From contig OY762428.1 in assembly GCA_963665665.1 (NCBI GenBank), forward strand, positions 3,744,001 through 3,808,000: a stretch of DNA of 64,000 bases, read 5' to 3'. This document shows positions 32,723-55,955 of the stretch, piece after piece. Each line of letters starts with the position of its first letter. Within the stretch, counting starts at the first letter, position 1. The position numbers and the translations under genes were made by a program. The stretch is from Candidatus Kapaibacterium sp. GTDB taxonomy: Bacteria > Bacteroidota > Ignavibacteria > Kapaibacteriales > UBA2268. The notes below the pieces were generated by a model. That model ran no database searches, had not been told where the DNA came from, and was given only the letters and a program-made list of their open reading frames with translations.

Positions 32723-35700
32723 ATGAAGCTTTTCAAGACACTCAGTCTTCTAACGGTTTTATTTTTCATGTGCTTCGGCATATCTAAAGCCCAGTTAGGC
32801 GGTACCGTAACAGTTGGTACCGGAGGTAATTACACCTCACTTGCTACTCTATTTAGCACAATTCAGTCCAACGGACTGTCAAGCAATCTCGTTATTGAAA
32901 TTGTCAGCGACCTTAATCTTGGTACAGCCGGCGCTGAACTGAGAATGTGGACCTATGGCACTTCATATTCAGTAACAATGCGGCCTACAGGCGGCGACAG
33001 GAGAATTTACGGTTCAATATCCGGTACAAAGGGATTGATTGAACTTGCATCAGTCCACAATTTTATAATTGACGGACGTATCGACGGCACTGGTAGCGGC
33101 AGGCATCTGACGCTCGAAAACACATCTACAGGCACTTATGCTGCCCTTGTTTGGCTGCAGAGCGCTGGTTCCAACAACGGCTGCCAGGATATTACTGTTA
33201 GGAATTGTAATTTAATTGGCGGTTCCTATACTTCCAGTTATACAATTGGTATTGCAGGAACAAGCACTACATCACTTTCATCAGGCGGTTATGACCATGA
33301 TGATATCACAATTCATGATAATAGCTTTAAACGCTTGTACTACGCCATGAACATTTATGGCCAGAGTTCAACTCTGACTTATCGCAACGAAGGTATTACA
33401 GTAACTGATAATACCATTGGTTCCGAAGTCAGCTCAGACAGGGTTTACTACTATGGTATTCGTATTTACTACGGAGCTGATGTAGAAATTACCGGTAATG
33501 AAATCTTCAATTTCGGTACTACTTCAGCTTATCCTGTTTACTTGTACTATGTTGACGGGGTAATATTTAATGACAACGTAATGCATGATTTTAATAATTA
33601 TGGCGTTTATTCATATTATCTCTCGGGCGATTGTGAGTTTAACGATAATATGTTATACCAGTCAGAATTAACATCATATAATTTCTATTATGGCCTTTAT
33701 CTCAGGTTCTCATCATCAACATCATATCCTGTTGGAGATATTGAAATCAAGGATAACGATATACAGAATTGCCGTTATTATGGGTTATATGCATATTATG
33801 CAGATGATGCCGATATTTCAGGCAATCATATCCATAATTTTAATTATTCTAATTCCTACCTGGCAGGCATCTATCTCTATTATGCCGATGGCGCTGTATT
33901 GACAAAGAATAGAATTCACGACATTACCAGCACTTATTCAAGTGGTGGCGGTACTTATGGGATCTATCACTATTATAGTAATGATACGAAACTTATTGAA
34001 AACGAGATTTATGACCTGAGTAATACAGGTAACGGAACAACTTACTATTATGGTGTTCATGGTATCAGGATGTATGGTTCAGATAATACAGCCATGTATC
34101 ACAACCTGATATATCTCGACGGTGCTTTTACTGGTAGTGCAACAAGTAAATCCTCGTGTATATTCTTTTCAGGTTCAGCTATCAACGAATGTGACTTCCA
34201 GAATAATATATTCATAAACAGGATGACAGGTGGTACTGCAGAACAGTATATTTATTACCTGTATTATGGCCAGTCAGACTTCGATGAAGTTGATTACAAT
34301 GCCTATGACATGACGGGTGCTACCAATGCTTATTTTGCTTATGACGATGATATGTTCCAGTGGTATAACACACTCGAAGATTTTGCCGGATATAATGGAA
34401 ACGATGCAAACTCAACAGAACGTTACATACAGTTCAAAGCTTATGAAGACTGGCATCTTGACGGCGAAACAGCTACAGACCCGTCAATGAACTGTAATAG
34501 GAAATCAGATGTTATGACTGATATGGATGATATCGACAGGTCGCTTACAACAACTATGGGCCTTGATGAAGTAAGAATGGAAGTTGGAATGGCTTCCGGC
34601 GGTGATATCAACCAGTATGAAGAAAGAATGTGCGACGGATCATCCATAAGCTATTCATTTACAGCCGAAGTAACCGGATTTGCTGATGAGGTTCCCAGAA
34701 CTGTTCCTCCTGCAAAATTCAACTATTCATGGTTCCACAACGATGCATGGATGAATCCTGCCCTTGATCCGAACATGACAGTTGAAGACAACACAATGAC
34801 TGTTGACAACTTTGGCGAGGATTACGAAGGCTGGTACGTTGCCGTGGCTACTCTTGGCGACCTGTCAGTTACATCCAGTACTTCAACAGTTGAAATGGAA
34901 CCTCCGGCAGACTTCACAGTTGAACCGGTTGAATATGCTTCTTCTTGCGAAGACTCAGAACCGATTTACCTTAATGTTGACGCTTCCGGTATCTACGAAG
35001 GATTCCAGTGGCAGAAACAGGACGGCGAAGGCAACTGGAACGATATTGAAGGAGCCACCCGCGATGAACTGATGATCCCTGCAAATGACATTGAAAATGC
35101 AATGGGATTCTACAGGGCAAGGTTTGTAAATCCGAAATGTACTCCTGTCAGAGATTATTCAAATGCAGCAGAAGTTTTCTTCTACGAAAAAGTTAAGAAT
35201 ATTTCAGCAATGTCACCGACAAAAAATAAATTACAGCTCTGCATGGGTGCTGATGCTGAATTTATGGTTACAGCCGACGGTTATGTAACCGGTTATCAGT
35301 GGTATTTCTCTGAAGATGGTGAAAACTGGATAAAAATAAATACACGCAGAAATGAAACAGCCGGTACAGACCACCTTGTTCTTGAAGATCTCGAAGTTAT
35401 GGAATCCGGTTATTATCGCTGTGAAGTTATTGGTAATACACTTTGTAACCCGCAGTCATACCTAAGTAATGCAATTGAAATTCAGGTTTGGCCGATGTAT
35501 GACATCGTTTCACATCCTGAAGGAATGGTTGTATGCGAAGGCGAAGACGTGGAACTTAACTTCATCGGCGACGGTGTTCTCCATGCTATTCACTGGCAGA
35601 GAGACGGCGTTGACATTAACCAGGAAGACAATCCGAGCGCAGGTACTCCTCTGCTCCAGCTTCCTGAACTCAGCTATGAAACATCAGGTGTTTATCGTGC

Positions 35701-36910
35701 ACGTCTTACTATCGAAGACTGCCGCGGTATAATCGACCTTTATACAAAATCAGCTCTTGTTTATGCTCTTACTGATCCTGAGATAGTAAAACAGCCGATG
35801 ACAAAAGCTGCAAACGAAGGCAAAAGTTTATTCTTTGAAGTTCGCGCTCATGTACGCGAAGAAGGCGAACCGATTGAAAGATTCGAATACCAGTGGTATC
35901 GTGGCACAACTCCTCTTGTTGACGACGGTCGTATCGCAGGCGCTCAGTCTTCAATCCTTTCAATAACAAATGTTCTTGCAAGCGATTATGGCAACGATTA
36001 CTCGGTATTCGTTAAGGGCCAGTGCGGCGAAACACAGTCTGACGTATTCTCAATCAATGCAGGCCCGTCAATCAATATTACATTGCAGCCCGTTGATAAC
36101 TCAGAATGCGAAACAGGAAACGCTCAGTTTGTTATCGACGTTGAAGGTAACAACACAACAAGTATTGATTACCAGTGGACAAAAGACGGCGCTGACCTGA
36201 TGGATGATGCACGCATTACAGGTTCTAACTCAATGACTTTCTCAATTGCAGGCCTAATGCCTTCTGATGCCGGTACTTATAACTGTAAAGTTACTGCACA
36301 GCCCGGCGATCTGATGGCTGTAACAGACGATGCAATGATTGAAGTTAAAGACCTCCCGGTTATTACCGGACAGTCTGACGACCTGACAGTTGATGCCAGC
36401 CGTTCATTCAGTATTGAAGTTGAAGCAACAGGCTACGAACCAATGACATACCAGTGGATGCTTGACGGAAACGATATTGCAGGCGCAGTTGACGCTATGT
36501 ACAGCGTAGCATCCGCTACAGTTTCAGACGCAGGTATTTATACATGTAAAGTAATGAATGAATGCGGCGAAGTAACAAGCGCCGACATCCAGGTTACTGT
36601 AAACATGAGTGGTGTGAATGGTGTGAATGATGCAGTTGCAGGCGGATTTGTTCTTCTTGGCAATACTCCTAACCCATTCGATTTCGAAACAGAAATTTCC
36701 TTCGTAGCTCCTTACGAAGCTGACGTGAAAGTTTCTGTTACTGATATGTACGGTAAAGAAGTTGCAGTTCTATTCAACGGAATGGCAACATCAGGACTGA
36801 ACAAATTCAGCTTTAACTCCGGCGATTACAACCTAAGCTCAGGTGTTTATTACTACACAATGACAACACAGGGCTACTCTGTAACACGCAAGATGATCAT
36901 CGTTAAATAA
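32723..36910 (+). CDS. Large T9SS-secreted surface protein: parallel beta-helix repeats + tandem Ig-like domains + T9SS CTD
   Basis: Sec signal; repeated I-x-x-N-x-I / YG(I/L)Y helix turns; Ig motifs YQW...D-x-G-x-Y-x-C; C-terminal NTPNPF...GVYYY...KMIIVK. Confidence 0.85.
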   Translation: MKLFKTLSLLTVLFFMCFGISKAQLGGTVTVGTGGNYTSLATLFSTIQSNGLSSNLVIEIVSDLNLGTAGAELRMWTYGTSYSVTMRPTGGDRRIYGSISGTKGLIELASVHNFIIDGRIDGTGSGRHLTLENTSTGTYAALVWLQSAGSNNGCQDITVRNCNLIGGSYTSSYTIGIAGTSTTSLSSGGYDHDDITIHDNSFKRLYYAMNIYGQSSTLTYRNEGITVTDNTIGSEVSSDRVYYYGIRIYYGADVEITGNEIFNFGTTSAYPVYLYYVDGVIFNDNVMHDFNNYGVYSYYLSGDCEFNDNMLYQSELTSYNFYYGLYLRFSSSTSYPVGDIEIKDNDIQNCRYYGLYAYYADDADISGNHIHNFNYSNSYLAGIYLYYADGAVLTKNRIHDITSTYSSGGGTYGIYHYYSNDTKLIENEIYDLSNTGNGTTYYYGVHGIRMYGSDNTAMYHNLIYLDGAFTGSATSKSSCIFFSGSAINECDFQNNIFINRMTGGTAEQYIYYLYYGQSDFDEVDYNAYDMTGATNAYFAYDDDMFQWYNTLEDFAGYNGNDANSTERYIQFKAYEDWHLDGETATDPSMNCNRKSDVMTDMDDIDRSLTTTMGLDEVRMEVGMASGGDINQYEERMCDGSSISYSFTAEVTGFADEVPRTVPPAKFNYSWFHNDAWMNPALDPNMTVEDNTMTVDNFGEDYEGWYVAVATLGDLSVTSSTSTVEMEPPADFTVEPVEYASSCEDSEPIYLNVDASGIYEGFQWQKQDGEGNWNDIEGATRDELMIPANDIENAMGFYRARFVNPKCTPVRDYSNAAEVFFYEKVKNISAMSPTKNKLQLCMGADAEFMVTADGYVTGYQWYFSEDGENWIKINTRRNETAGTDHLVLEDLEVMESGYYRCEVIGNTLCNPQSYLSNAIEIQVWPMYDIVSHPEGMVVCEGEDVELNFIGDGVLHAIHWQRDGVDINQEDNPSAGTPLLQLPELSYETSGVYRARLTIEDCRGIIDLYTKSALVYALTDPEIVKQPMTKAANEGKSLFFEVRAHVREEGEPIERFEYQWYRGTTPLVDDGRIAGAQSSILSITNVLASDYGNDYSVFVKGQCGETQSDVFSINAGPSINITLQPVDNSECETGNAQFVIDVEGNNTTSIDYQWTKDGADLMDDARITGSNSMTFSIAGLMPSDAGTYNCKVTAQPGDLMAVTDDAMIEVKDLPVITGQSDDLTVDASRSFSIEVEATGYEPMTYQWMLDGNDIAGAVDAMYSVASATVSDAGIYTCKVMNECGEVTSADIQVTVNMSGVNGVNDAVAGGFVLLGNTPNPFDFETEISFVAPYEADVKVSVTDMYGKEVAVLFNGMATSGLNKFSFNSGDYNLSSGVYYYTMTTQGYSVTRKMIIVK

Positions 36911-41775: not shown

Positions 41776-42804
41776 ATGAAAGAAATTCAGGATTATCATA
41801 GCTTTCTTTCTGAAATAAAGAAGAAAATACGAAATGCTCAATACGAGGCATTGAAGAGTGTAAATAAATACTTGATAAGCCTGTATTGGGATATTGGGAA
41901 AATGATCGTTGAAAAACAGAATATTTCAGGCTGGGGAAAATCCGTAGTAGAAAATCTTTCCAAAGATTTGCATACGGAATTCCCTGACTTAAAGGGATTT
42001 TCGGCAAGAAACTTATGGAATATGAAAGTTTTTTATGAAGAATTTAGTTCAAATGAAATTCTGCAACCATTGGTTGCAGAAATTAGCTGGACAAAACATT
42101 TGCTAATAATGGCTAAGTGCAAGGATGTCAGGGAACGGCAATTTTATATTCTTTCCACAAAAAAATATGGCTGGTCAAAAGATGTCCTTATTCACCAAAT
42201 AGAAAACAAGTCATTTGAAAAATATATTCTTAATCAGAATAATTTTGATGAAACTTTGCCTGTTGAAATTCAAAACCAGGCAAAATTAGCGGTTAAAGAT
42301 TCCTATACTTTCGATTTTCTTGAGCTTGGAGGCCAACACTCTGAAAAAGAGCTTGAAATTGAGCTGGTTAGGAATATTCGAAAATTTCTGCTTGAAATGG
42401 GGAACAATTTTGCATTTATGGGAAATCAATTTAAAATTACTGTTGGGGATACTGATTTCTACATTGATTTGCTTCTTTACCACCGTATTTTAAATTGTCT
42501 TGTGGCAGTAGAATTAAAAGTTGGAGAGTTTAAACCTGAATTTAAAGGTAAAATGGAATTTTATCTGAATGTATTGGATGACAAAGTTAAAATTGATGCA
42601 GAAAATGATTCAATTGGCATTATTATTTGCAAGGATAAAAACCGGGCTATTGTCGAATATGCAATCAAAAACTCTAATCATCCAATAGGCGTTTCCACAT
42701 ATAGAATAACTGACAATTTGCCGGAACACTATAAAAATTTACTTCCCTCATCGGAGATTATTGCTGAAAAAATCGAGTTAATATTAAAAGAGAATGATAA
42801 ATGA
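41776..42804 (+). CDS. YhcG/DUF1016 family PD-(D/E)XK nuclease-like protein
   Basis: LYWDIG, GFSARNL, SWTKH, KDSYTFDFL, FLLEMG, IDLLLYH, VELK. Confidence 0.92.
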   Translation: MKEIQDYHSFLSEIKKKIRNAQYEALKSVNKYLISLYWDIGKMIVEKQNISGWGKSVVENLSKDLHTEFPDLKGFSARNLWNMKVFYEEFSSNEILQPLVAEISWTKHLLIMAKCKDVRERQFYILSTKKYGWSKDVLIHQIENKSFEKYILNQNNFDETLPVEIQNQAKLAVKDSYTFDFLELGGQHSEKELEIELVRNIRKFLLEMGNNFAFMGNQFKITVGDTDFYIDLLLYHRILNCLVAVELKVGEFKPEFKGKMEFYLNVLDDKVKIDAENDSIGIIICKDKNRAIVEYAIKNSNHPIGVSTYRITDNLPEHYKNLLPSSEIIAEKIELILKENDK

Positions 42805-45800
42805 AAAAAGCTATCCTTACCCTATTACTACTGCTGCCGCTTGCAGCGCAGGCGCAAAGCCTTTCGGTATTTGATATTGACACAACTGACTACCCGATAA
42901 TGCGGGCAAAGTTCTATGTATTTGATGAGAATAGAGATCAAATCATTAACCTTTCTCCCTCCGATTTTGAAATAACTGAAAATGGAGAGCAAAGGGATGT
43001 GATTAGTGTTTCCTGCCCGGAACCGAAAGAACCTGTTGCAATTTCAAGCGTACTGACGATAGACGTTTCGGGTTCTATGACGACGGGCACCAAACTTAAT
43101 ACGGCAAAGGAAGCAGGAAAAGCTTGGATAAATGGGCTGCCCCTCGGAAAATCAGAATGCGCTATTACTGCTTTTGATACAAGAAATAATATGATTCAGG
43201 ATTTTACAACTAACAGATCAAGGCTGCTTGAAAAGTTAAATATCCTTTCTGCTGGTGGCGGTACTGATTTTGATGCCGGTTTTATCAATCCAATGTCAGG
43301 AGCTTTGCTTGCCGCTGAAAAAGGAAAATATAAAAAAGTTGTTGTATTTGTAACTGATGGATTTGCAGATGGTAACGAAGTAGCAATTATCCAAAAGTCA
43401 AATGAAATCGGCGCTACAGTGTTTTGTGTTACAATTGGCTTTACTTGTCCGCTGATATTAAGGAATATTGCCGAACAAACAGGCGGAAAGTGGTTTGAAA
43501 ATATAGCAACTGTAGATCAGGCAAGGCAAACATATTTGAAAATTTTACAAATGGCACAGGGAGGTGGTCCCTGCGAAATTGAATGGGAAAGCGGGATACA
43601 TTGTAATTATAATAAAGTAATCTTTGAAGCTAAAATTCCAAAATTTATGTTAGTGTATTCCGGAAATTATCTTTCTACGATTAGTTCCATTGCAAAACTA
43701 CAATTTTCTCCTGTCGGAATTTTATTATTAAATAAACCTGTAGGTGTGCGTGCTGATACTGTGGTAACAATTACTGCGTTCAATTCTGATTTCATTGTAA
43801 GCAATATAACAAGTAATAACCCTGAATTTGAAATAAATCCCAAATCATTTTCAATTAAAGCCGGGGAAAGTAAAGAATTGATTGTAAGTTTTACACCTGT
43901 TGATGAAAGTAATAAATTTGCAAAATTTGATATGAAAAATGATCTTTGCAATATTAATTACTATTCTGCTGGCAGGCATATTGGACAGACTGAACAGCAA
44001 AAAACATTAAAACTAACACATCCCAACGGCGGAGAAGAATTCCTTGTTGGCAGAGATACAATTATAACATGGGAAGGTATTTTGCCTACCGGTACAGTAT
44101 CTTTGGATTATAGTATTAATAATGGCAAAAACTGGAATAATATCACAGACAGCGCAAGTGATTATAAGTATGTTTGGAAAAATATACCAAGTCCTGAATC
44201 TGACGAATGTCTAATAAAAATTGATCAGGATGCATATAGAGAATCTGATTCTCATCTTATTTGGAGTACTGCACCCGGTGGTCATATCAATGATATTGCT
44301 TATAACCCGGATGGCAGTAAAATCGCTTATAATATTTGGGATATTGTTTACATAGTTGATAGTAAAACAGGAAATTTATTAAGGATTCTATCTGGACATA
44401 GTGATGATGTAAAGTGTTTATCCTTCAGTCCGGACGGGAACAAAATTGCTACAGCAAGCTATGACAATACCTGCAAATTGTGGGATTTACAAAGCGGAAA
44501 AGAAATATCTACTTTAATTGGACATTCACGTGGTGTTGAATGTATAATATTCAGTCCAGACGGCAGTAAAATCGCTTCAGGGAGCTGGGACAATACAATA
44601 AAGATATGGGACTCAAACAACGGTGCAGAATTGTGTAATCTATCAGGACATAAAAGTACAATAGAAAGCTTATCATTTAGCCCCGATGGCAAACTACTGG
44701 CATCCGGAAGCAGGGACAGTACCTGCAAGATTTGGGATATTGCAAGTGGTTCAGAGATACGGACTCTAACTAAGAGCGTTGATATATTTAGTGTAGATTT
44801 CAACCCTGACGGTAGTATACTCGCTTCAGCTGGTCGGGATGGAATCAAGCTCTGGGACGTTAAAAGCGGAGTTAAGATTAGTCATGATACATCACTAATA
44901 GGGCATAAAGATGTTATACTAGACCTAATGTTTAGTCCTAACGGAAGAATGCTCGCTTCGGGTAGCAAGGACAAAACAATTAAGCTATGGGATGTAGATA
45001 GTGGAGATTTGATCCGCACTCTAATAGGACATGAATGGGGAGTATATTGCTTATCATTCAGTCCAGACGGCAGCAATATTGCTTCCGGAGGATTAGACAA
45101 AACAATAAGAATATGGGATGTTAGTAGCGGTACTGTGATTGATACATTATCAGGTCATGAAAATAATGTTAACAGTGTAAAATTCAGTCCAGATGGCAAC
45201 AAGATCGCTTCTTGCAGTGATGACAGAACAATCAAAATTTGGGATTCAAAAAGTGGTATTGAGCTTACAACATTCATTGGTTATTCTATGGCAAACGACT
45301 TATCATACAGCCCGGATGGCAGCAAGCTAGCTTCTGCCTGGGATAACAGAATACTAACGCTCTGGGATATTGAAACTGGAACGGAAATAGACACATTGAC
45401 CGGGCATAGTGGCAATGTAATAAGCGTATCGTTCAGCCCTGACGGTAGTATGATTGCTTCGGGAAGTGCTGATAAAACTATCAAGCTCTGGGACGCTTCC
45501 AACGGTACGGAAATACGCACACTGACCGGGCATAGTAGCAATGTAATGAGCGTATCGTTCAGCCCTGACGGCAGCATGATAGCCTCCTGTAGTACTGATA
45601 GTACTATCAAGCTCTGGGACGCTTCCAACGGTACGGAAATACGCACACTGACCGGGCATAGTAGTTATGTCATGAGTATATCGTTCAGCCCTGACGGTAG
45701 TATGATTGCCTCAGGTGGGGCAGACAGTACAGTTAGAGTTTGGGATGTTAATAGCGGGATGGAAATACATACACTTAAAGGTCAATCATTTATTATTTAT

Positions 45801-47372
45801 TGTGTAACTTACAGTCCCGACGGAAGCAAGATTGCTTCAGCAGGGAACAAAATGATCAAAATATGGGATGCTAATCGTGGCATTGAAATTAGTACATTGA
45901 AAGCTAATTCCATTTGTTGGACCGCTCGAAACTTATCTTTTAGTCCAGACGGCAAAATACTCGCTTCCGGAAGTGTTGATAATACTGTAAAAACCTGGAT
46001 AATTGAAGAAAATATCCTCCAATCCGATACATCTGACGCAGTTTTCTCCATCGTCGCCCCACACGCAGAAGCGCGAAGCATAGATATGGGCAGGGAGATT
46101 GTGGGCGAAGTGAAAGATTCCCTTTTTGCGGATTTTGTTGTTAATACCGGGTCGTATAAGGTAAGGATTGATTCCATATATTTCTCCGGGGCTGATGCAA
46201 ATGCTTTCGCGCAGGTTTCGGCTTTCCCTGTATATGAAATTGATGTGGATAAGGCGCAATCCACAGAGTTCAGGTTTATACCAAACCGTGTAGGTCTTCA
46301 TACTGCAAAATTGAATATAATAACACAGGCTGAAAACCTGGAATATGATATATCAGGCATTGGCGAGGAAAGAAGATTGCAGCTTGCCTGCGATATTCTC
46401 GACTTTGGTGAAGTGGAAATGGGCAATGATACTATCATTGCCGATACCGTTCTTATCAGGAATCTGACAAACCAGCAAATAGATATTACGGGCGTCAGCC
46501 AGCTCGGGCCGGATATGGAGCAGTTCAATATCATCAGCGGCGGCGGCACTTTCACACTTGCCCCGAGCGGTGAGCACAAAATGTCATTGCAGTTCATGCC
46601 TAAATACGGAGGCAGGACTTCCGGACAGCTTGGGTTTGAATACGAGGGCGCTGGAAGCCCTGCAATAGTTCAGCTATTCGGTACAGGCAAGGGCGGCCTT
46701 GTCTATGCTGCGGACGATTCAGCCTACGCCGGAGACCAGTTCAATATTAAACTCATGCTAGGAAATGTAAAACCCGAGGGCATTGCCAAACTTGCCACAG
46801 ATTACAAAGCAACTATCCGTTTCCAAAGAACACTGCTTGCCCCCTCGGGAAGCATCGACTGGCAAAGTACAGTTGATTCCATTTACATAACCATAAAAGG
46901 AAAAATCGGCAATACTGTTGAATTATCAGAAATACCGGTTATTGCCTGCCTTGGCAACACGGAGGAAACTGCAATCGATGTGGTGGAAATGAACCTTCTC
47001 GACGAGTCCGGCAATCCGATAGAATACGAATTTGAAAAACAGAGCGGAACATTCACCCTGCTCGGCATCTGCCGCGAGGGCGGCGCCAGGCTGATAAATC
47101 CTAATATCGAAGCAGGGATTATTAATATTTCACCAAATCCTGCTGAAAAAAGCCTGAATATCGAAATATCACTGATAGAAGAAGGCCAGACGGAACTTTC
47201 AATATTCAATTCATTCGGGGAATCTGTTCAGAACATATTTTCCGCAAACAACGAAACCACGGGTGCAAACAAATTTAAAGCCGACATCAGCAATCTTGCC
47301 AACGGAGTTTACTACGTTATTCTGAAAACACCCAATCAGCATTTTATCGAAAAGGTGTTGGTGATAAGGTAG
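42801..47372 (+). CDS. T9SS-secreted protein: vWA + Ig-like (choice-of-anchor D-like) + 14 WD40 repeats + Ig-like + T9SS CTD
   Basis: Signal peptide; MIDAS DVSGS, GGGT and VTDG; 14 GH...FSPDG...WD repeats; ISPNPA...GVYYV...KVLVIR tail. Confidence 0.88.
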   Translation: MKKAILTLLLLLPLAAQAQSLSVFDIDTTDYPIMRAKFYVFDENRDQIINLSPSDFEITENGEQRDVISVSCPEPKEPVAISSVLTIDVSGSMTTGTKLNTAKEAGKAWINGLPLGKSECAITAFDTRNNMIQDFTTNRSRLLEKLNILSAGGGTDFDAGFINPMSGALLAAEKGKYKKVVVFVTDGFADGNEVAIIQKSNEIGATVFCVTIGFTCPLILRNIAEQTGGKWFENIATVDQARQTYLKILQMAQGGGPCEIEWESGIHCNYNKVIFEAKIPKFMLVYSGNYLSTISSIAKLQFSPVGILLLNKPVGVRADTVVTITAFNSDFIVSNITSNNPEFEINPKSFSIKAGESKELIVSFTPVDESNKFAKFDMKNDLCNINYYSAGRHIGQTEQQKTLKLTHPNGGEEFLVGRDTIITWEGILPTGTVSLDYSINNGKNWNNITDSASDYKYVWKNIPSPESDECLIKIDQDAYRESDSHLIWSTAPGGHINDIAYNPDGSKIAYNIWDIVYIVDSKTGNLLRILSGHSDDVKCLSFSPDGNKIATASYDNTCKLWDLQSGKEISTLIGHSRGVECIIFSPDGSKIASGSWDNTIKIWDSNNGAELCNLSGHKSTIESLSFSPDGKLLASGSRDSTCKIWDIASGSEIRTLTKSVDIFSVDFNPDGSILASAGRDGIKLWDVKSGVKISHDTSLIGHKDVILDLMFSPNGRMLASGSKDKTIKLWDVDSGDLIRTLIGHEWGVYCLSFSPDGSNIASGGLDKTIRIWDVSSGTVIDTLSGHENNVNSVKFSPDGNKIASCSDDRTIKIWDSKSGIELTTFIGYSMANDLSYSPDGSKLASAWDNRILTLWDIETGTEIDTLTGHSGNVISVSFSPDGSMIASGSADKTIKLWDASNGTEIRTLTGHSSNVMSVSFSPDGSMIASCSTDSTIKLWDASNGTEIRTLTGHSSYVMSISFSPDGSMIASGGADSTVRVWDVNSGMEIHTLKGQSFIIYCVTYSPDGSKIASAGNKMIKIWDANRGIEISTLKANSICWTARNLSFSPDGKILASGSVDNTVKTWIIEENILQSDTSDAVFSIVAPHAEARSIDMGREIVGEVKDSLFADFVVNTGSYKVRIDSIYFSGADANAFAQVSAFPVYEIDVDKAQSTEFRFIPNRVGLHTAKLNIITQAENLEYDISGIGEERRLQLACDILDFGEVEMGNDTIIADTVLIRNLTNQQIDITGVSQLGPDMEQFNIISGGGTFTLAPSGEHKMSLQFMPKYGGRTSGQLGFEYEGAGSPAIVQLFGTGKGGLVYAADDSAYAGDQFNIKLMLGNVKPEGIAKLATDYKATIRFQRTLLAPSGSIDWQSTVDSIYITIKGKIGNTVELSEIPVIACLGNTEETAIDVVEMNLLDESGNPIEYEFEKQSGTFTLLGICREGGARLINPNIEAGIINISPNPAEKSLNIEISLIEEGQTELSIFNSFGESVQNIFSANNETTGANKFKADISNLANGVYYVILKTPNQHFIEKVLVIR
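45397..45712 (+). repeat. Intragenic 126-bp tandem repeat (three near-identical WD40 units)
   Basis: TGACCGGGCATAGT at 45397, 45523 and 45649; 62-bp exact identity between 45477-45538 and 45603-45664. Confidence 0.92.
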
Positions 47373-53308: not shown

Positions 53309-53348
53309 AAAAAGAAAAGATCTTCCAGGGGCTTGCCCGGAAGATCTG
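53309..53348 (-). terminator. Terminator of the Rieske/cytochrome operon
   Basis: AGATCTTCC...GGAAGATCT stem; minus strand continues TTTCTTTTT. Confidence 0.7.
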
Positions 53349-53375: not shown

Positions 53376-53870
53376 TTAAAAATATATTTCCAGAAGGCCT
53401 GTACCGGCATCAAACTTACTCGGGAATTCTTTTAGCGCTTTTTCGGCGGGGCCTTTGATTGGATTTCCGTGGTCAAATGGATCGAACCTGGAGCCGTGGC
53501 AGTAGCATACAATATCGGTGCGCCCCGGTCGCGGCAGACGTAAGTCGTCGCCGAAGCAGTTGGCGTGAGTGCAAAGCGAGGAGAAACATGCAAAAGCATC
53601 ATCGGCAATACGAACGATTATTATCGGGATTCCAAAGTTTACATGAGTCCATCTTTGAATCACAGACCCTCCAATCCGGGCCAGTGTTTCTTCGGGGTTT
53701 GTATCGAATTCCACCATTCCGCCGGTCAGTCCCTGGTTCTTCTCCCTGTCGAACTCGCAGGAAACCAGTCCGCTGACGGCTGCAACAGTTGCCGGGCAAA
53801 GGCCAAGCAATGCCAGGCCTTTTTTCATAAAATCCCTTCTCTCATCCGATAAAGTTTTATCTCTTTCCAT
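53376..53870 (-). CDS. Tat-exported Rieske [2Fe-2S] lipoprotein
   Basis: ERRDFMKK twin-arginine signal, LVSC lipobox, CTHANC...CYCHGSRF cluster motifs, GPA. Confidence 0.88.
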   Translation of the reverse strand: MERDKTLSDERRDFMKKGLALLGLCPATVAAVSGLVSCEFDREKNQGLTGGMVEFDTNPEETLARIGGSVIQRWTHVNFGIPIIIVRIADDAFACFSSLCTHANCFGDDLRLPRPGRTDIVCYCHGSRFDPFDHGNPIKGPAEKALKEFPSKFDAGTGLLEIYF

Positions 53871-54652
53871 TACCTGCTTACCGCCATTTTCTTAGTTCTC
53901 TTTCTGCCGTCCGCTGTTTCCAGACTAATAATATAAGCGCCAACCTGCAATCCAGAAACGTTAATATCAATATCATAGTTTCCGGAATCAACAAATTTAT
54001 TGCTGAAAACGGTTAAAACCTGATTCCCGATTGAATCGTAAACTTTCAGGGAATATTGTCCGGGAAGTTCCACGCCATAGCCGACGGATGTTGTGTTGCT
54101 GCACGGGTTGGGATAGTTTTGCCGGAGATAAAGCAATCCTTCGCTTTCGTCTTCAATACCAACAAGAACTGCGGGAATATCAAGATACAGGCTGTCGCCG
54201 CCATTCCATCGAACTTCAAATGTCTGCAGGTCTTCGGCTGCAGGCCCGTCCACATAAGTGCCGTCGGCTTTAAAAATTGTGCCGTGGCCGGAGCATTCAA
54301 ACTCGTGGTAAATATCAAGGTCGTAAACCGATTCACCTTCGTGCGGGCACAATGTATAAATGCAGGAATAGTGTTTGCCGTATTCTTCGTAATCAAGTTT
54401 GGTGACGATAATTGGTGCAAAAAAACCATCAGTGATATCGTTTGGAATTTGTATCCTGACAGATCCCCAGACTTCCTTTAGTTCGGGATAATCTTTCAGG
54501 CTGATGTGGTATGTACCCATTATTTCATCTTTATTCTTTTTAAGCGAAGGAGTAACTACTCCTTTCAATATGTGCGGGCAGGCAGGAGTAAATATACTGA
54601 TAGCCAGCATATTTTTCAGGAACTGCCTTCTGCGATTGCTGATGTTTTTCAT
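53870..54652 (-). CDS. Tat-signal Rieske [2Fe-2S] protein with T9SS C-terminal sorting domain
   Basis: NRRRQFLK; CPH-x15-CSGH; GPA; tail QNYPNP...LKVYD..G...GAYII...TKKMAVSR. Confidence 0.85.
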   Translation of the reverse strand: MKNISNRRRQFLKNMLAISIFTPACPHILKGVVTPSLKKNKDEIMGTYHISLKDYPELKEVWGSVRIQIPNDITDGFFAPIIVTKLDYEEYGKHYSCIYTLCPHEGESVYDLDIYHEFECSGHGTIFKADGTYVDGPAAEDLQTFEVRWNGGDSLYLDIPAVLVGIEDESEGLLYLRQNYPNPCSNTTSVGYGVELPGQYSLKVYDSIGNQVLTVFSNKFVDSGNYDIDINVSGLQVGAYIISLETADGRKRTKKMAVSR

Positions 54653-54672: not shown

Positions 54673-55743
54673 TCAAAAATTATCTGTTGGTTTTTTAAAT
54701 TTCTTATTTGCAAGGAACTCGTGGTCAGTAAGTGATTTCAGGAAAGCAACCAGGTCTGCTTTTTCCTGTTCGGTCAGGTTCAGGGGCCTCATCAGCGGGT
54801 CGCGATTGAAGAAGGGCTTCCCGCCCCTGTTATAATGGTTAATAACGTCTTCGAGTGTTTCAAGGTCTCCGTTGTGATAGTAGGGCGCTGTCATTTCAAT
54901 ATTTCTGAGCGTGGGGGTGATAAATACTCCCCAGTCCTTGAAATTCATTGTTTTATAATACCTGCCTTTATCAAAATAATGTGTTGTAACACCGGTATTA
55001 TGGAATTTCATATCTGTAAAGAATATTCCCGAATGGCACTGCGAGCAGTTGGTTTTAGTAGTATCAAAGTACAGTTTCATCCCGCGTATTTCGGATTCGT
55101 TCAGAGCGGCCAGGTCTCCGCGCCTGTATTTGTCATAATCAGAGTTGCCGGAGATAAGAGTTCTTACAAATGTTGAAATTGCCAGGGATACATTAGTTGC
55201 CGTCGGTTTTGCCCCTTTGCCGAAAGCTTTTTCGAACATGGAGGGATAAAGCGGATGTTCGGACAACCTTTTTTCAATTTCATTGGTATCGGCGCCCAGA
55301 ATTTGGTTCAGCCAGAGGCTTCTGTAGGCAGGCCCTTCAATTCTTCTGCCACGTCCGTCCCAGAAAAGCTTATCCCTGTAGGCAGCATTTATCAGGCACA
55401 TGGCATTTCGCGGTTCCGGTTCAAGCTCATTTGCCCTGCTCACAGGTGTGCAGTCCGAGAAAGAATACTCAGGCTTCATACAATGAGAGCAGGATGGCAG
55501 ATTCATGTCGCGGGAAAGCAGTTTTTCATAAAAAAGCCTTCGGCCAAGTTCAGCTTTTTCCTTTGTAATTGGATTGTATTCCGGTTGTGGAACGGGCGGA
55601 AAATCTTCCGGTACAGTCAAAAAGCCTTCTTTCTTTTCAGTTTCCGACTCAACAATGGAGGAGCATGAAAAAGATGAAAGAAGAGCCGTAAGAATTATGA
55701 GAATAGAAAATTTATATATTAGAATCGATTTATTACTGTTCAT
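54673..55743 (-). CDS. Diheme cytochrome c peroxidase/MauG/MbnH-family lipoprotein with atypical first heme motif
   Basis: FSC lipobox; LGRRLFYE..LS; CSHCM; FWDGR; CSQCH; TPTLRNI..TAPYYHNG. Confidence 0.88.
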   Translation of the reverse strand: MNSNKSILIYKFSILIILTALLSSFSCSSIVESETEKKEGFLTVPEDFPPVPQPEYNPITKEKAELGRRLFYEKLLSRDMNLPSCSHCMKPEYSFSDCTPVSRANELEPEPRNAMCLINAAYRDKLFWDGRGRRIEGPAYRSLWLNQILGADTNEIEKRLSEHPLYPSMFEKAFGKGAKPTATNVSLAISTFVRTLISGNSDYDKYRRGDLAALNESEIRGMKLYFDTTKTNCSQCHSGIFFTDMKFHNTGVTTHYFDKGRYYKTMNFKDWGVFITPTLRNIEMTAPYYHNGDLETLEDVINHYNRGGKPFFNRDPLMRPLNLTEQEKADLVAFLKSLTDHEFLANKKFKKPTDNF

Positions 55744-55955
55744 TTCGTTCACCCGGCAGTTATTATTATTCCAGAGTAAATATATTCATTAACCTAATCA
55801 AAAAATGTTCATTTCCAAAGCAATACTTTTATCGCTAAAAGTAATGTTTAGCTTTCTTTCCTGTTAATAATAACAAATGTAATTAAAGAAAATTACAATT
55901 GAAATATTTTTATTAATTTATAATCCAGTTTTGTGTAATTAACAATATAAAAGAT

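Follow-up and report, generated by a model that had tools for sequence, protein, structure and literature searches.

A Rieske-type protein with a Tat-type signal and a T9SS sorting domain suggests a two-step route to the cell surface in a Kapaibacterium-type bacterium

Can the T9SS take over a protein that the Tat pathway has already carried across the inner membrane? The question arose from a 64,000-nucleotide stretch of Candidatus Kapaibacterium sp. DNA (contig OY762428.1, positions 3,744,001 to 3,808,000; hereafter the window), in which a first-pass annotation had noted a twin-arginine N-terminus, a Rieske [2Fe-2S] ligand set and a T9SS-like tail on one and the same open reading frame. Kapaibacterium-type bacteria are poorly studied. 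The annotation had also stated that T9SS cargo is generally described as Sec-exported, and in this it agrees with two reviews and with the cargo predictor T9GPred which, in the portions of these sources available to us, excludes proteins with a Tat signal. According to the same portions, the "no Tat signal" rule of T9GPred was drawn from 102 experimentally identified cargo proteins; T9GPred would thus reject the protein described here on account of its Tat-type signal.

The three elements do stand on one protein. The gene at 53870..54652 of the window (minus strand) encodes 260 residues that run from a Tat-type signal through a Rieske [2Fe-2S] domain and a linker to a type-A T9SS C-terminal sorting domain (CTD), and this confirms the layout first read from it. 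The cluster ligands, originally given as CPH-x15-CSGH, are found as C102-P-H104 and C120-S-G-H123 with 15 residues between them, and the twin-arginine N-terminus is likewise in place, MKNISNRRRQFLK carrying R8-R9-Q-F-L-K. Two further T9SS proteins had been reported in the window, and their tails were recovered as well. The features are as follows.

54560..54652, minus strand: signal region, residues 1-31, with R8-R9-Q-F-L-K in the n-region and an h-region at about residues 14-24(28)
54173..54520, minus strand: Rieske domain, residues about 45-160 (AlphaFold2, Foldseek and PDB profile search)
54284..54349, minus strand: cluster-binding boxes C102-P-H104 ... C120-S-G-H123 (direct sequence reading and homologue alignment)
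54128..54172, minus strand: linker between Rieske domain and tail, residues 161-175 (low pLDDT)
53873..54127, minus strand: type-A T9SS C-terminal sorting domain, residues 176-260 (PF18962, TIGR04183 and family HMM)
32723..36910, plus strand: other T9SS-tail protein (tail score 30.1 bits)
42801..47372, plus strand: other T9SS-tail protein (tail score 52.1 bits, at window positions 47127-47363)

The reading we lean towards is one of two-step sorting, in which cytoplasmic cluster insertion is followed by Tat export and then by T9SS placement at the surface, within an envelope redox module. As the motif, the family and the passenger suggest, the protein would fold and gain its cluster in the cytoplasm, and TatABC would export it by way of RRxFLK, like Rieske proteins of the bc1/b6f/AioB class. 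Signal peptidase I would then cut the signal after residue 24 or after the invariant G31, and the PorV/SprA translocon would recognise the folded type-A CTD in the periplasm, as the tail and the gene content of the genome indicate. The holo-protein would cross the outer membrane and PorU would cut the disordered linker, with the Rieske domain then either attached to the surface or released. In the weakest step of the scheme, the protein would carry single electrons on the outer side of the cell envelope. Its partners would be a translationally coupled, Tat-exported Rieske lipoprotein and one or two MauG/CCP-like di-haem lipoproteins, with a small PSCyt-like lipoprotein also belonging to the module in most relatives, and its most likely role would be to supply a peroxidase-type reaction on or close to the cell surface with electrons, or to accept electrons from it.

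We begin with the tail. The first-pass annotation had proposed that it should match T9SS CTD models, and it did so above the curated cut-offs of both Pfam Por_Secre_tail (PF18962; 36 bits against a cut-off of 27, residues 180-256 of 260) and TIGR04183 (32.4 bits against 23). Por_Secre_tail also matched 19/19 homologues, and an HMM built from the family and iterated on the same genome gave 67.6 bits over residues 176-260. Conserved tail positions comprise P181-N-P183, G238, Y240 and K255. The tail was modelled with a pLDDT of 90-96 and residues 163-170 of the linker with a pLDDT below 50. Type-A CTDs are known to be cut off by PorU, and the linker is likely the site at which this would occur. 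The combination is also conserved: both the Rieske and the tail domains were found in 108 of 127 size-matched relatives (the 108 being counted at the level of 50%-identity clusters). Searched with the family profile, 401 sampled genomes of the phylum yielded a full-length orthologue in just this genome, a count that does not establish its absence elsewhere in the phylum since only 6 candidates were scored per genome.

The genome itself holds much of the machinery that such a tail calls upon. With the iterated family HMM, about 356 tail-bearing ORFs were counted in the complete genome, alongside SprA (956.6 bits), PorU (853.4 bits) and a PorV that adjoins PorU and scores 164.4 and 79.5 bits within one 368-residue frame, just below the cut-off of 250. 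For the first step, there are TatC (211.3 bits) and two TatA/B genes (60.2 and 43 bits). Compared with textbook T9SS hosts, SprA, PorU and PorV are thus present, whereas GldM and GldN are not recognisable. Neither GldM model (TIGR03517, PF12081) matched in this genome; across the phylum the Pfam model recovered GldM from 29 of 121 genomes, yet every genome sampled from the family and order of the window went without a match, as did all those listed for its class. GldN gave no match in this genome either, and its control search was likewise silent, while GldK reached no more than 83 bits, its cut-off being 350. With GldM and GldN undetected and GldK far under its cut-off, this secretion machine departs from the textbook one, and without a recognisable GldM or GldN the T9SS of this lineage may differ from the Flavobacterium model.

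That GldM and GldN went undetected in the lineage also favours a different reading, one that we consider unlikely, in which Tat export leaves the protein in the periplasm as an electron carrier, its tail docking to PorV or another outer-membrane protein or going unused. All other members of the module carry lipobox-type signals and may face the periplasm, and the documented T9SS cargo, in the available part of the T9GPred source, includes no Tat-signal protein. Speaking against periplasmic residence, the tail exceeds two curated cut-offs, its PNP, G-x-Y and near-terminal K are kept across the family, and it persists in the 108 of 127 relatives, while this genome encodes SprA, PorU and PorV along with 356 tails of the kind. 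Moreover, no protein with a type-A CTD is known to us to reside in the periplasm. Two-step sorting to the surface remains the reading that we carry forward to the surroundings of the gene.

The gene is the middle one of a three-gene operon, preceded by a di-haem lipoprotein gene and followed by the gene of a second Rieske protein.

54673..55752, minus strand: operon gene 1, a 359-residue di-haem-type lipoprotein of the MauG/MbnH/CCP family (CCP_MauG, 128.6 bits)
53376..53870, minus strand: operon gene 3, a 164-residue second Rieske protein (Pfam Rieske, 39.6 bits)
53318..53347, minus strand: terminator-like hairpin, a 12-pair stem followed by a T run (consensus scan)

The di-haem gene ends 20 bases ahead of the start of the Rieske-tail gene, and the start of the second Rieske gene overlaps the Rieske-tail stop in the sequence TAATG, an arrangement by which the two Rieske genes are read as translationally coupled. 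The hairpin lies 29 bases past the second Rieske stop and probably marks the end of the operon, although the scan that located it returned 4 sites against 3.3 expected in shuffles. The second Rieske protein combines a Tat motif (RRDFMKK) with a lipobox (LVSC-E) and boxes of the bc1 type (CTHxxC ... CxCHGS); R11, R12, C38, E39 and the six cysteines and histidines of the boxes are invariant in 15/15 sequences. In the di-haem protein, which has a lipobox-like FSC, the CCP_MauG score and an intact second CxxCH resemble the CCP/MauG/MbnH family, but the first haem motif is altered to CSHCM and the scores stay under the equivalog cut-offs for MbnH and MauG. This alteration recurs: besides the window's copy, which is its only di-haem gene, one of the paralogues at each of 9 related loci has CSHC[M/L]K as its first haem motif, and CxxCH is kept in its counterpart.

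The module holds together beyond this genome. Directly downstream of the Rieske-tail gene, the second Rieske gene was found in 16/16 distinct related loci, with a PSCyt-like gene downstream in 13 of the 16, and of the 12 loci whose flank was long enough, 11 had di-haem genes upstream. The metagenome scan contributed 7 loci, 4 of which duplicate DNA of other loci in the set. Complex prediction between the Rieske domain (residues 30-165) and the mature second Rieske protein (residues 39-164) scored 0.11, the mark being 0.32, and speaks neither for nor against a complex. That the di-haem proteins work with the Rieske pair is read from gene order.

This link could take another form. MbnH and MauG each act on a partner protein encoded adjacent to them, and it is conceivable, if improbable, that the route is the one we favour but that the di-haem proteins are MauG/MbnH-like maturases, oxidatively modifying one of the two Rieske proteins, or both, instead of trading electrons with them as peroxidases. 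Among the NCBIfam models, the di-haem gene indeed fits those of the MbnH family (TIGR04039, 241 bits) and MauG (173 bits) best, and the gene order is kept in those 11 of 12 loci. Yet both scores lie under their family cut-offs (362.85 and 443.85, respectively), the window holds no MbnP or methylamine dehydrogenase gene, and in one related locus (L020) no di-haem gene accompanies the Rieske pair. We therefore retain electron transfer, at the conditional strength given above, as the role of the module in two-step sorting.

What, then, is the passenger? Pfam Rieske (PF00355) matched it at 27 bits against a cut-off of 20.3, and the four cluster ligands are invariant in 19/19 homologues; among the 108 relatives, 101 keep the ligands as CHCH and 7 have lost one. 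In the AlphaFold2 model, the Rieske stretch has a pLDDT of mostly 82-93, and Foldseek placed it with probability 1.00 beside the Chlorobaculum Rieske protein 8hn2_A, PetC3 (5cxm_A) and AioB (8cff_B), the PDB profile search also retrieving 5cxm_A at E 2.1e-09. Ligands and fold thus mark it as a Rieske [2Fe-2S] protein with a predicted bound cluster, and both fold and profile are nearest to Tat-dependent, respiratory-class Rieske proteins (8hn2, 5cxm and AioB). In fold and CxH...CxxH ligands it agrees with Synechocystis PetC3 (5cxm), the soluble Rieske domain of Chlorobaculum tepidum (8hn2) and AioB (5nqd, 8cff), and, like the bc1/b6f/AioB class, it has a twin-arginine N-terminus. It differs from this class in that no gene for a cytochrome b or AioA partner accompanies it, in its short, cleavable-looking signal in place of an anchor, and in the added T9SS tail. 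It also lacks the pair of additional disulfide cysteines found in bc1-type Rieske proteins, the boxes reading CPHEGE and CSGHGT. Two specific assignments were rejected: a bc1/b6f Rieske subunit (NF045928, 21 bits against 250; TIGR01416, 15.4 against 97.4; the window being without a cytochrome b gene) and AioB, the small subunit of arsenite oxidase (TIGR02694, 16.6 against 95.65; the neighbours being the di-haem protein and the second Rieske protein, without AioA).

The Rieske subunits of bc1/b6f complexes keep their Tat signal as an anchor, and the nearest solved relatives of our protein are Rieske subunits of bc1/b6f-type complexes; the signal also lacks an obvious A-x-A cleavage motif. These points would fit an uncleaved signal-anchor that holds the protein in the inner membrane, with the tail as a relic. 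We find this very improbable, as the uncharged stretch after the twin arginines spans 16 residues, short for an anchor, and holds a conserved, helix-breaking T-x-x-C-P-H; no cytochrome b gene lies nearby; the NCBIfam bc1/b6f models overall score 15-21 bits against cut-offs of 97-250; and the tail is conserved rather than decaying. In the two-step reading, by contrast, the signal would be removed: we infer cleavage after A24 or after the invariant G31. A lipoprotein signal was also considered and rejected. It is unlikely because a cysteine follows the h-region in only 13 of 19 homologues and the residue at -1 is often T, N or C, whereas true lipoproteins of the same gene module have S or G at this position.

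The remaining step concerns the type of signal. The Tat consensus is R-R-x-F-L-K (S/T-R-R-x-F-L-K), located in the n-region, and the N-terminus matches R-R-x-F-L-K exactly at R8-R9-Q-F-L-K before continuing into a short, weakly hydrophobic stretch. Across the 19 close homologues, R8 and R9 are nearly invariant (18 have the twin arginines and the 19th is a gene call that is short at its N-terminus), P26 and G31 are conserved, and the signal region contains a conserved T-x-x-C-P-H-x-L-L-G that ends at the invariant G31. The pattern extends to the wider family: twin arginines were found in 99 of the 108 relatives that have both domains, followed by F/L-L/I/M in 93, and of the 9 without them 8 begin at or after the h-region and 1 has KR. 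The maximum 12-residue Kyte-Doolittle mean of the h-region is 1.57, against a median of 2.74 for the tail-bearing ORFs of the same genome. This makes it the 16th lowest of 356; within the first 60 residues scanned, 13 of the 15 lower-scoring ORFs have an extended hydrophilic lead or repeats, or lack a recognisable signal.

Curated Tat-signal models did not recognise it. Pfam TAT_signal (PF10518) gave no match to the protein even at E <= 10 and a single match among the 19 homologues (E = 0.27), and the NCBIfam Tat-signal models (TIGR01409) gave none at E <= 1; the neighbouring second Rieske lipoprotein, with its invariant twin arginines, likewise went without a Pfam or NCBIfam Tat-signal match. 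A strict Tat rule was passed by 2 of the 356 tail-bearing ORFs, with ~0.6 expected (24 of 14,162 ORFs pass overall), so that within a single genome the pairing of Tat motif and tail is not statistically striking by itself and it is conservation that carries weight. The second such ORF encodes a DUF1501 protein (TAT_signal 23.3 bits against a cut-off of 22.7; Por_Secre_tail 27.1 against 27), and both tail-bearing ORFs with a canonical Tat motif have unusually weakly hydrophobic signal cores. The first-pass annotation had held that a Sec-type signal would speak against its interpretation; in light of the exact RRxFLK, the family-wide twin arginines and the weakly hydrophobic h-region, the signal looks Tat-type rather than Sec.

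As far as is known, Rieske passengers are loaded with their cluster and folded in the cytoplasm. That the twin arginines are incidental, and that Sec exports the protein unfolded, either free of a cluster or gaining a metal centre outside the cytoplasm, could draw on the silent Pfam and NCBIfam models, on a 2/356 count that is not significant alone against about 0.6 expected, and on the ligand lost in 7/108 relatives, but seems to us barely credible given the twin arginines in 99/108 relatives with F/L-L/I/M after them in 93, an h-region among the least hydrophobic of the 356, ligands that are invariant in the close family, and the fact that we know of no periplasmic Fe-S assembly system. Taken together, these results support the Tat-to-T9SS interpretation with which the first-pass annotation had set out, the route being what the sequences of the protein and its relatives suggest.

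How would such a route compare with known ones? Like other type-A CTD cargo, such as the Porphyromonas gingivalis gingipain RgpB and the secreted enzymes of Flavobacterium johnsoniae, the protein has a beta-sandwich sorting domain at its extreme C-terminus, after a flexible linker; unlike that cargo, its signal is of the Tat rather than the Sec type and its passenger is an Fe-S protein of only about 130 residues that would mature in the cytoplasm. A closer parallel for the order of steps is offered by PlcH and PlcN, Tat-then-T2SS exoproteins of Pseudomonas aeruginosa. In both cases Tat would move a folded protein over the inner membrane, after which an outer-membrane system for folded substrates would take over, but here the outer-membrane step would be the T9SS (SprA/PorV and a CTD signal) instead of a secretin, and the cargo has a redox cofactor. 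Tat-then-type-II secretion of folded exoproteins by P. aeruginosa is described in the available part of PMC4899797, and the T9SS is itself described as moving folded proteins in that of PMC9251779. Tat-dependent T9SS cargo is not described in the portions available to us of PMC4804311, PMC5445135, PMC9251779, PMC5121618 and PMC6549377, nor in those of PMC9127263, PMC8047123, PMC13721041 and bioRxiv 10.1101/2023.03.31.535141.

In its broadest form, which we advance more tentatively than the route of this one protein, the proposal is that the T9SS may take Tat-delivered substrates, and that Ignavibacteria/Kapabacteria-type lineages may thereby place a cofactor-loaded [2Fe-2S] Rieske protein outside the cell. 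Within a surface redox module not described before, which would consist of the Rieske pair, the MauG/CCP-like di-haem lipoproteins and the small PSCyt-like lipoprotein, this protein would take the outermost place, delivered there by a T9SS without a recognisable GldM/GldN motor and ring. To our knowledge, Fe-S proteins at the cell surface are very rare.

In their available portions, both the reviews published up to October 2026 and the one predictor dedicated to T9SS cargo place the T9SS strictly downstream of Sec. Whether Tat can feed it is tested most cleanly in nature by the conserved Rieske-tail family, whose passenger, by all that is known of Rieske proteins, has to fold and take up its cluster in the cytoplasm. 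If Tat does so, cargo inventories of FCB-group bacteria would be systematically incomplete, and the T9SS could serve to display cofactor-containing enzymes. For extracellular electron transfer, or for defence against peroxide at the surface of these bacteria, Fe-S proteins on the outside of the cell would then be candidates alongside multihaem cytochromes.

The gene analysed here, which encodes a protein joining a twin-arginine (Tat)-type signal, a Rieske domain and a type IX secretion (T9SS) C-terminal tail, is flanked on either side by a gene running in its own direction, making a cluster of three.

Features of the gene cluster (window positions)
54673..55752, minus: di-haem gene, upstream; 359-aa lipoprotein of the CCP/MauG/MbnH family
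53870..54652, minus: Rieske-tail gene; ATG start and an open frame of 260 codons
53376..53870, minus: second Rieske gene, downstream; 164 aa, its ATG overlapping the upstream stop (TAATG)
53347..53318, minus: terminator-like hairpin, 3' of the second Rieske gene

The Rieske-tail gene starts 20 bases past the stop of its upstream neighbour, without an alternative upstream start, and the N-terminus of its product is MKNISNRRRQFLK, in which R8-R9-Q-F-L-K is an exact fit to the twin-arginine consensus R-R-x-F-L-K. The cluster-ligand boxes (CPH-x15-CSGH) lie at residues 102-123, within a protein that scores 27 bits against the Pfam Rieske model (cut-off 20.3), and the C-terminus matches both Pfam Por_Secre_tail (36 bits vs a cut-off of 27, residues 180-256) and NCBIfam TIGR04183 (32.4 bits vs 23). 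The first-pass annotation, which had read a twin-arginine motif, a complete Rieske ligand set and a T9SS-type tail (with the TIGR04183 model as the proposed check), was therefore borne out on each of these and on their position, as it was on two further T9SS-tail proteins in the window. At window 42801-47372 (plus strand), a 1523-aa protein made up largely of WD40 repeats (469 bits for Pfam WD40, in 10 stretches) ends in a strong T9SS tail (52.1 bits).

A word-indexed search returned 19 full-length homologue clusters (38-53% identity); existing annotation gave both Pfam domains for 17, and all 19 matched both on rescan. Once aligned, the homologues share all four cluster ligands and tail residues P181-N-P183 and Y240 without exception; tail residues G238 and K255 are retained in 90% of rows or more, and R8 and R9 are found in 18 of the 19, the exception beginning within the h-region and resembling a short gene call. 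When 1.84 billion representatives were searched exhaustively with a profile, 68 proteins matched at E ≤ 1e-30. Of all 127 relatives in the set P0001-P0169 (P0020 omitted) that measure 220-300 residues, 108 matched both an HMM of the Rieske part and the tail HMM. RR occurs within the N-terminal 60 residues in 99 of these, and the pattern RRx[FLIVM][LIVMFA] fits 93; eight of the nine RR exceptions begin at or after the h-region and one reads KR. The CHCH ligands are intact in 101/108, one ligand being lost in the other seven. Given this conservation in the 19 homologues and 108 relatives, the three-part architecture is old and under selection, not the accident of a single gene.

In an AlphaFold2 model built on the 19 homologues (mean pLDDT 82.7), the Rieske domain (residues ~45-160) and the beta-sandwich tail (residues 174-258, pLDDT 90-96) are both confident, and the linker between them is disordered (pLDDT below 50 over residues 163-170). 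The top Foldseek matches in the PDB were respiratory-class Rieske domains, namely 8hn2_A (a Chlorobaculum tepidum soluble domain), 5cxm_A (Synechocystis PetC3) and arsenite oxidase AioB, and a sequence profile search of the PDB concurred (5cxm_A, E 2.1e-09; AioB 5nqd_B, E 1.8e-08); PorU and PorZ, which bear T9SS C-terminal domains themselves, were also among the Foldseek matches. Unlike bc1-type Rieske proteins, the protein lacks both extra disulfide-forming cysteines, and it falls far under every cut-off of the bc1, b6f and AioB equivalogs. It is a member of the bc1/b6f/AioB structural class and of none of those complexes, the small PetC3-like Rieske proteins being the closest likeness for its passenger.

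Beyond the exact and conserved motif, assigning the signal to Tat instead of Sec is favoured by basic residues in the c-region and a weakly hydrophobic core and, to our knowledge, Rieske passengers of this class are Tat-dependent wherever they have been studied. An uncleaved anchor is unlikely, as the uncharged stretch spans 16 residues and is broken by the conserved T-x-x-C-P-H. A lipoprotein signal is likewise unlikely: 13/19 homologues have a Cys after the h-region, and T, N or C commonly occupies position -1. As for the curated Tat models, Pfam TAT_signal did not match the Rieske-tail protein and matched 1/19 homologues (E 0.27), and NCBIfam listed no Tat-signal model for the protein; this silence is weak evidence against Tat, because the second Rieske protein, with RR in 15/15 relatives, was missed too.

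We then placed this signal among those of all tail-bearing proteins of G000, the complete genome containing the window (a single 5.46-Mb contig, 99.5% complete). A tail HMM built from the Rieske-tail family and iterated over all G000 ORFs matched 362, with the domain at the C-terminus in 356; a Pfam tail search agrees (375 first-look candidates, of which 150 were scored, all over the cut-off). A strict Tat rule (RRxF[LIVM], then an uncharged stretch that is moderately hydrophobic) admitted just 2/356 tail-bearing ORFs; in nine others the RR precedes a very hydrophobic core (2.48-3.16) of Sec-like character. For the two strict cases, one being the Rieske-tail protein, the h-region hydrophobicity (maximum 12-residue Kyte-Doolittle mean) is 1.57 and 1.61, placing them 16th and 17th lowest among the 356, whose median is 2.74 and 5th percentile 1.79. 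Of the 15 ORFs that rank lower, all except two begin, over their first 60 residues, with a long hydrophilic lead or a repeat region or lack a recognisable signal. With 24 of 14,162 ORFs passing the rule genome-wide, ~0.6 would be expected among tail-bearing ORFs vs the 2 observed, a difference that is not significant for this one genome and that counts against a Tat reading. The other strict case is the following:

G000:C1:2279182-2280762, minus: 526-aa protein, outside the window

Three models recognise this protein: DUF1501 (66.4 bits), Pfam TAT_signal (23.3 vs a cut-off of 22.7) and Por_Secre_tail (27.1 vs 27). It is unrelated to the Rieske-tail protein, so within G000 the two signals were paired on at least two occasions. 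Directly upstream of its gene lies a 537-aa ORF starting MDRRDFI. Also outside the window, three short ORFs at G000:C1:1354792-1356666 share an identical N-terminus (MFRRSFLKVF...) and are spaced by ~840 bases, a pattern that points to a tandem repeat of about that period.

Related DNA was collected from scans of species-representative genomes and of metagenomes. The former contributed 13 loci encoding full-length relatives, under the titles Ignavibacteria, Kapabacteria or Kapaibacterium save for a few, and the latter 7 loci, 4 of which repeat the DNA of earlier loci, giving 16 distinct loci. The second Rieske gene directly follows the Rieske-tail gene in 16/16. Where the upstream flank reaches 2 kb or more (12 loci), di-haem genes lie directly upstream in 11, the exception being L020; L024 has a single copy and the other 10 loci have two each. 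The window's di-haem protein scores 128.6 bits for CCP_MauG and, under their cut-offs, 241 for the MbnH family and 173 for MauG; it has CSHCM in place of the first CxxCH haem motif. Nine loci (L009, L011-L015 and L017-L019) each encode two di-haem paralogues, one with a conserved CSHC[L/M]K and one with the canonical CxxCH, and in the window the non-canonical type alone is retained. All di-haem proteins compared from the window and these nine loci have an intact second CxxCH and a lipobox-type signal. The second Rieske protein carries RRDFMKK, a lipobox (LVSC then E) and bc1-type CTHxxC and CxCHGS, all invariant in 15/15 relatives, and is a predicted Tat-exported lipoprotein because the twin-arginine and the lipobox Cys-Glu are both invariant. 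Acidic residues directly follow its lipobox Cys. In 13/16 loci a further small lipoprotein gene, missing from the window, lies downstream of the Rieske pair; its product has ~125 aa, a weak PSCyt1 match (18.5-19.7 bits vs a cut-off of 22) and CX4CH (CGLSYCH) replacing CxxCH.

Examples of the small downstream lipoprotein (11 further loci likewise)
L011:7328-7714, strand not given
L015:7325-7702, strand not given

Three loci (L013, L018 and L022) are titled 'uncultured Hyphomicrobiales', labels that may be wrong because their gene content and best matches resemble those of Ignavibacteria/Kapabacteria loci.

G000 encodes Tat parts (TatC, 211 bits, and two TatA/B genes) and T9SS parts (SprA, 957 bits; PorU, 853 bits, with PorV adjoining). 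GldM had no match in G000 with either of two models, nor in sampled genomes of the window's family (0/2) or order or listed genomes of its class; the Pfam GldM model itself works, matching in 29/121 sampled genomes of the phylum. GldN had no match in G000, its model being silent in every genome searched and hence uninformative, and the best GldK match (83 bits vs a cut-off of 350) was not convincing. By its gene content, then, the lineage appears to combine hundreds of tail-bearing proteins and translocon/sortase parts without the textbook motor and ring, which calls for care when extrapolating from Porphyromonas or Flavobacterium.

In its tail the Rieske-tail protein resembles type-A T9SS cargo, but it departs from all documented T9SS cargo in the Sec signal common to them. 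That such cargo is generally Sec-exported, as first annotated, agrees with a 2021 review, whose table enters T9SS as '2 (Sec)', and with T9GPred, which requires 'no Tat signal'. Among the matching passages of a full-text literature search, we found neither a Tat-dependent T9SS cargo nor a Rieske protein with a T9SS tail. We know of nothing about T9SS that demands arrival of a substrate by Sec, and Pseudomonas PlcH is an example of secretion by Tat and then T2SS. Such Tat-then-T2SS secretion, as described in the abstract of PMC4899797, follows the same two-step logic as proposed here, and a passage of PMC9251779 describes T9SS as carrying folded proteins.

What the computations establish is the three domains and their conservation, the presence of Tat and SprA/PorU/PorV, and the conserved operon. 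In the proposed route, the cluster would be inserted in the cytoplasm and the folded protein exported by Tat; the signal would be cleaved, the folded tail recognised in the periplasm, and PorU would cut within the disordered linker. We consider this full Tat-then-T9SS route the best available reading and, as inferred from sequence, a moderately probable one. More tentatively, and less likely than not, gene order and family names suggest that the protein may serve as a one-electron carrier at the outer face, forming one module with the Rieske lipoprotein and the di-haem peroxidase-type lipoproteins.

Outside the window, at G000:C1:5260309-5262144 (minus strand), a 611-aa ORF joins a Sec-like signal to a T9SS tail and contains CxxCH five times, making it a candidate secreted multihaem cytochrome. 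This tail-bearing ORF shows that the same path is probably taken by further redox cofactor proteins. The Rieske-tail protein is related to three known kinds, namely secretion in two steps, cargo of T9SS and Rieske proteins exported by Tat; new here are the size of the family, the conserved operon of a Rieske pair and di-haem genes, the genome-wide count, and the lack of a recognisable GldM in the host lineage, which may energise or organise its T9SS differently.
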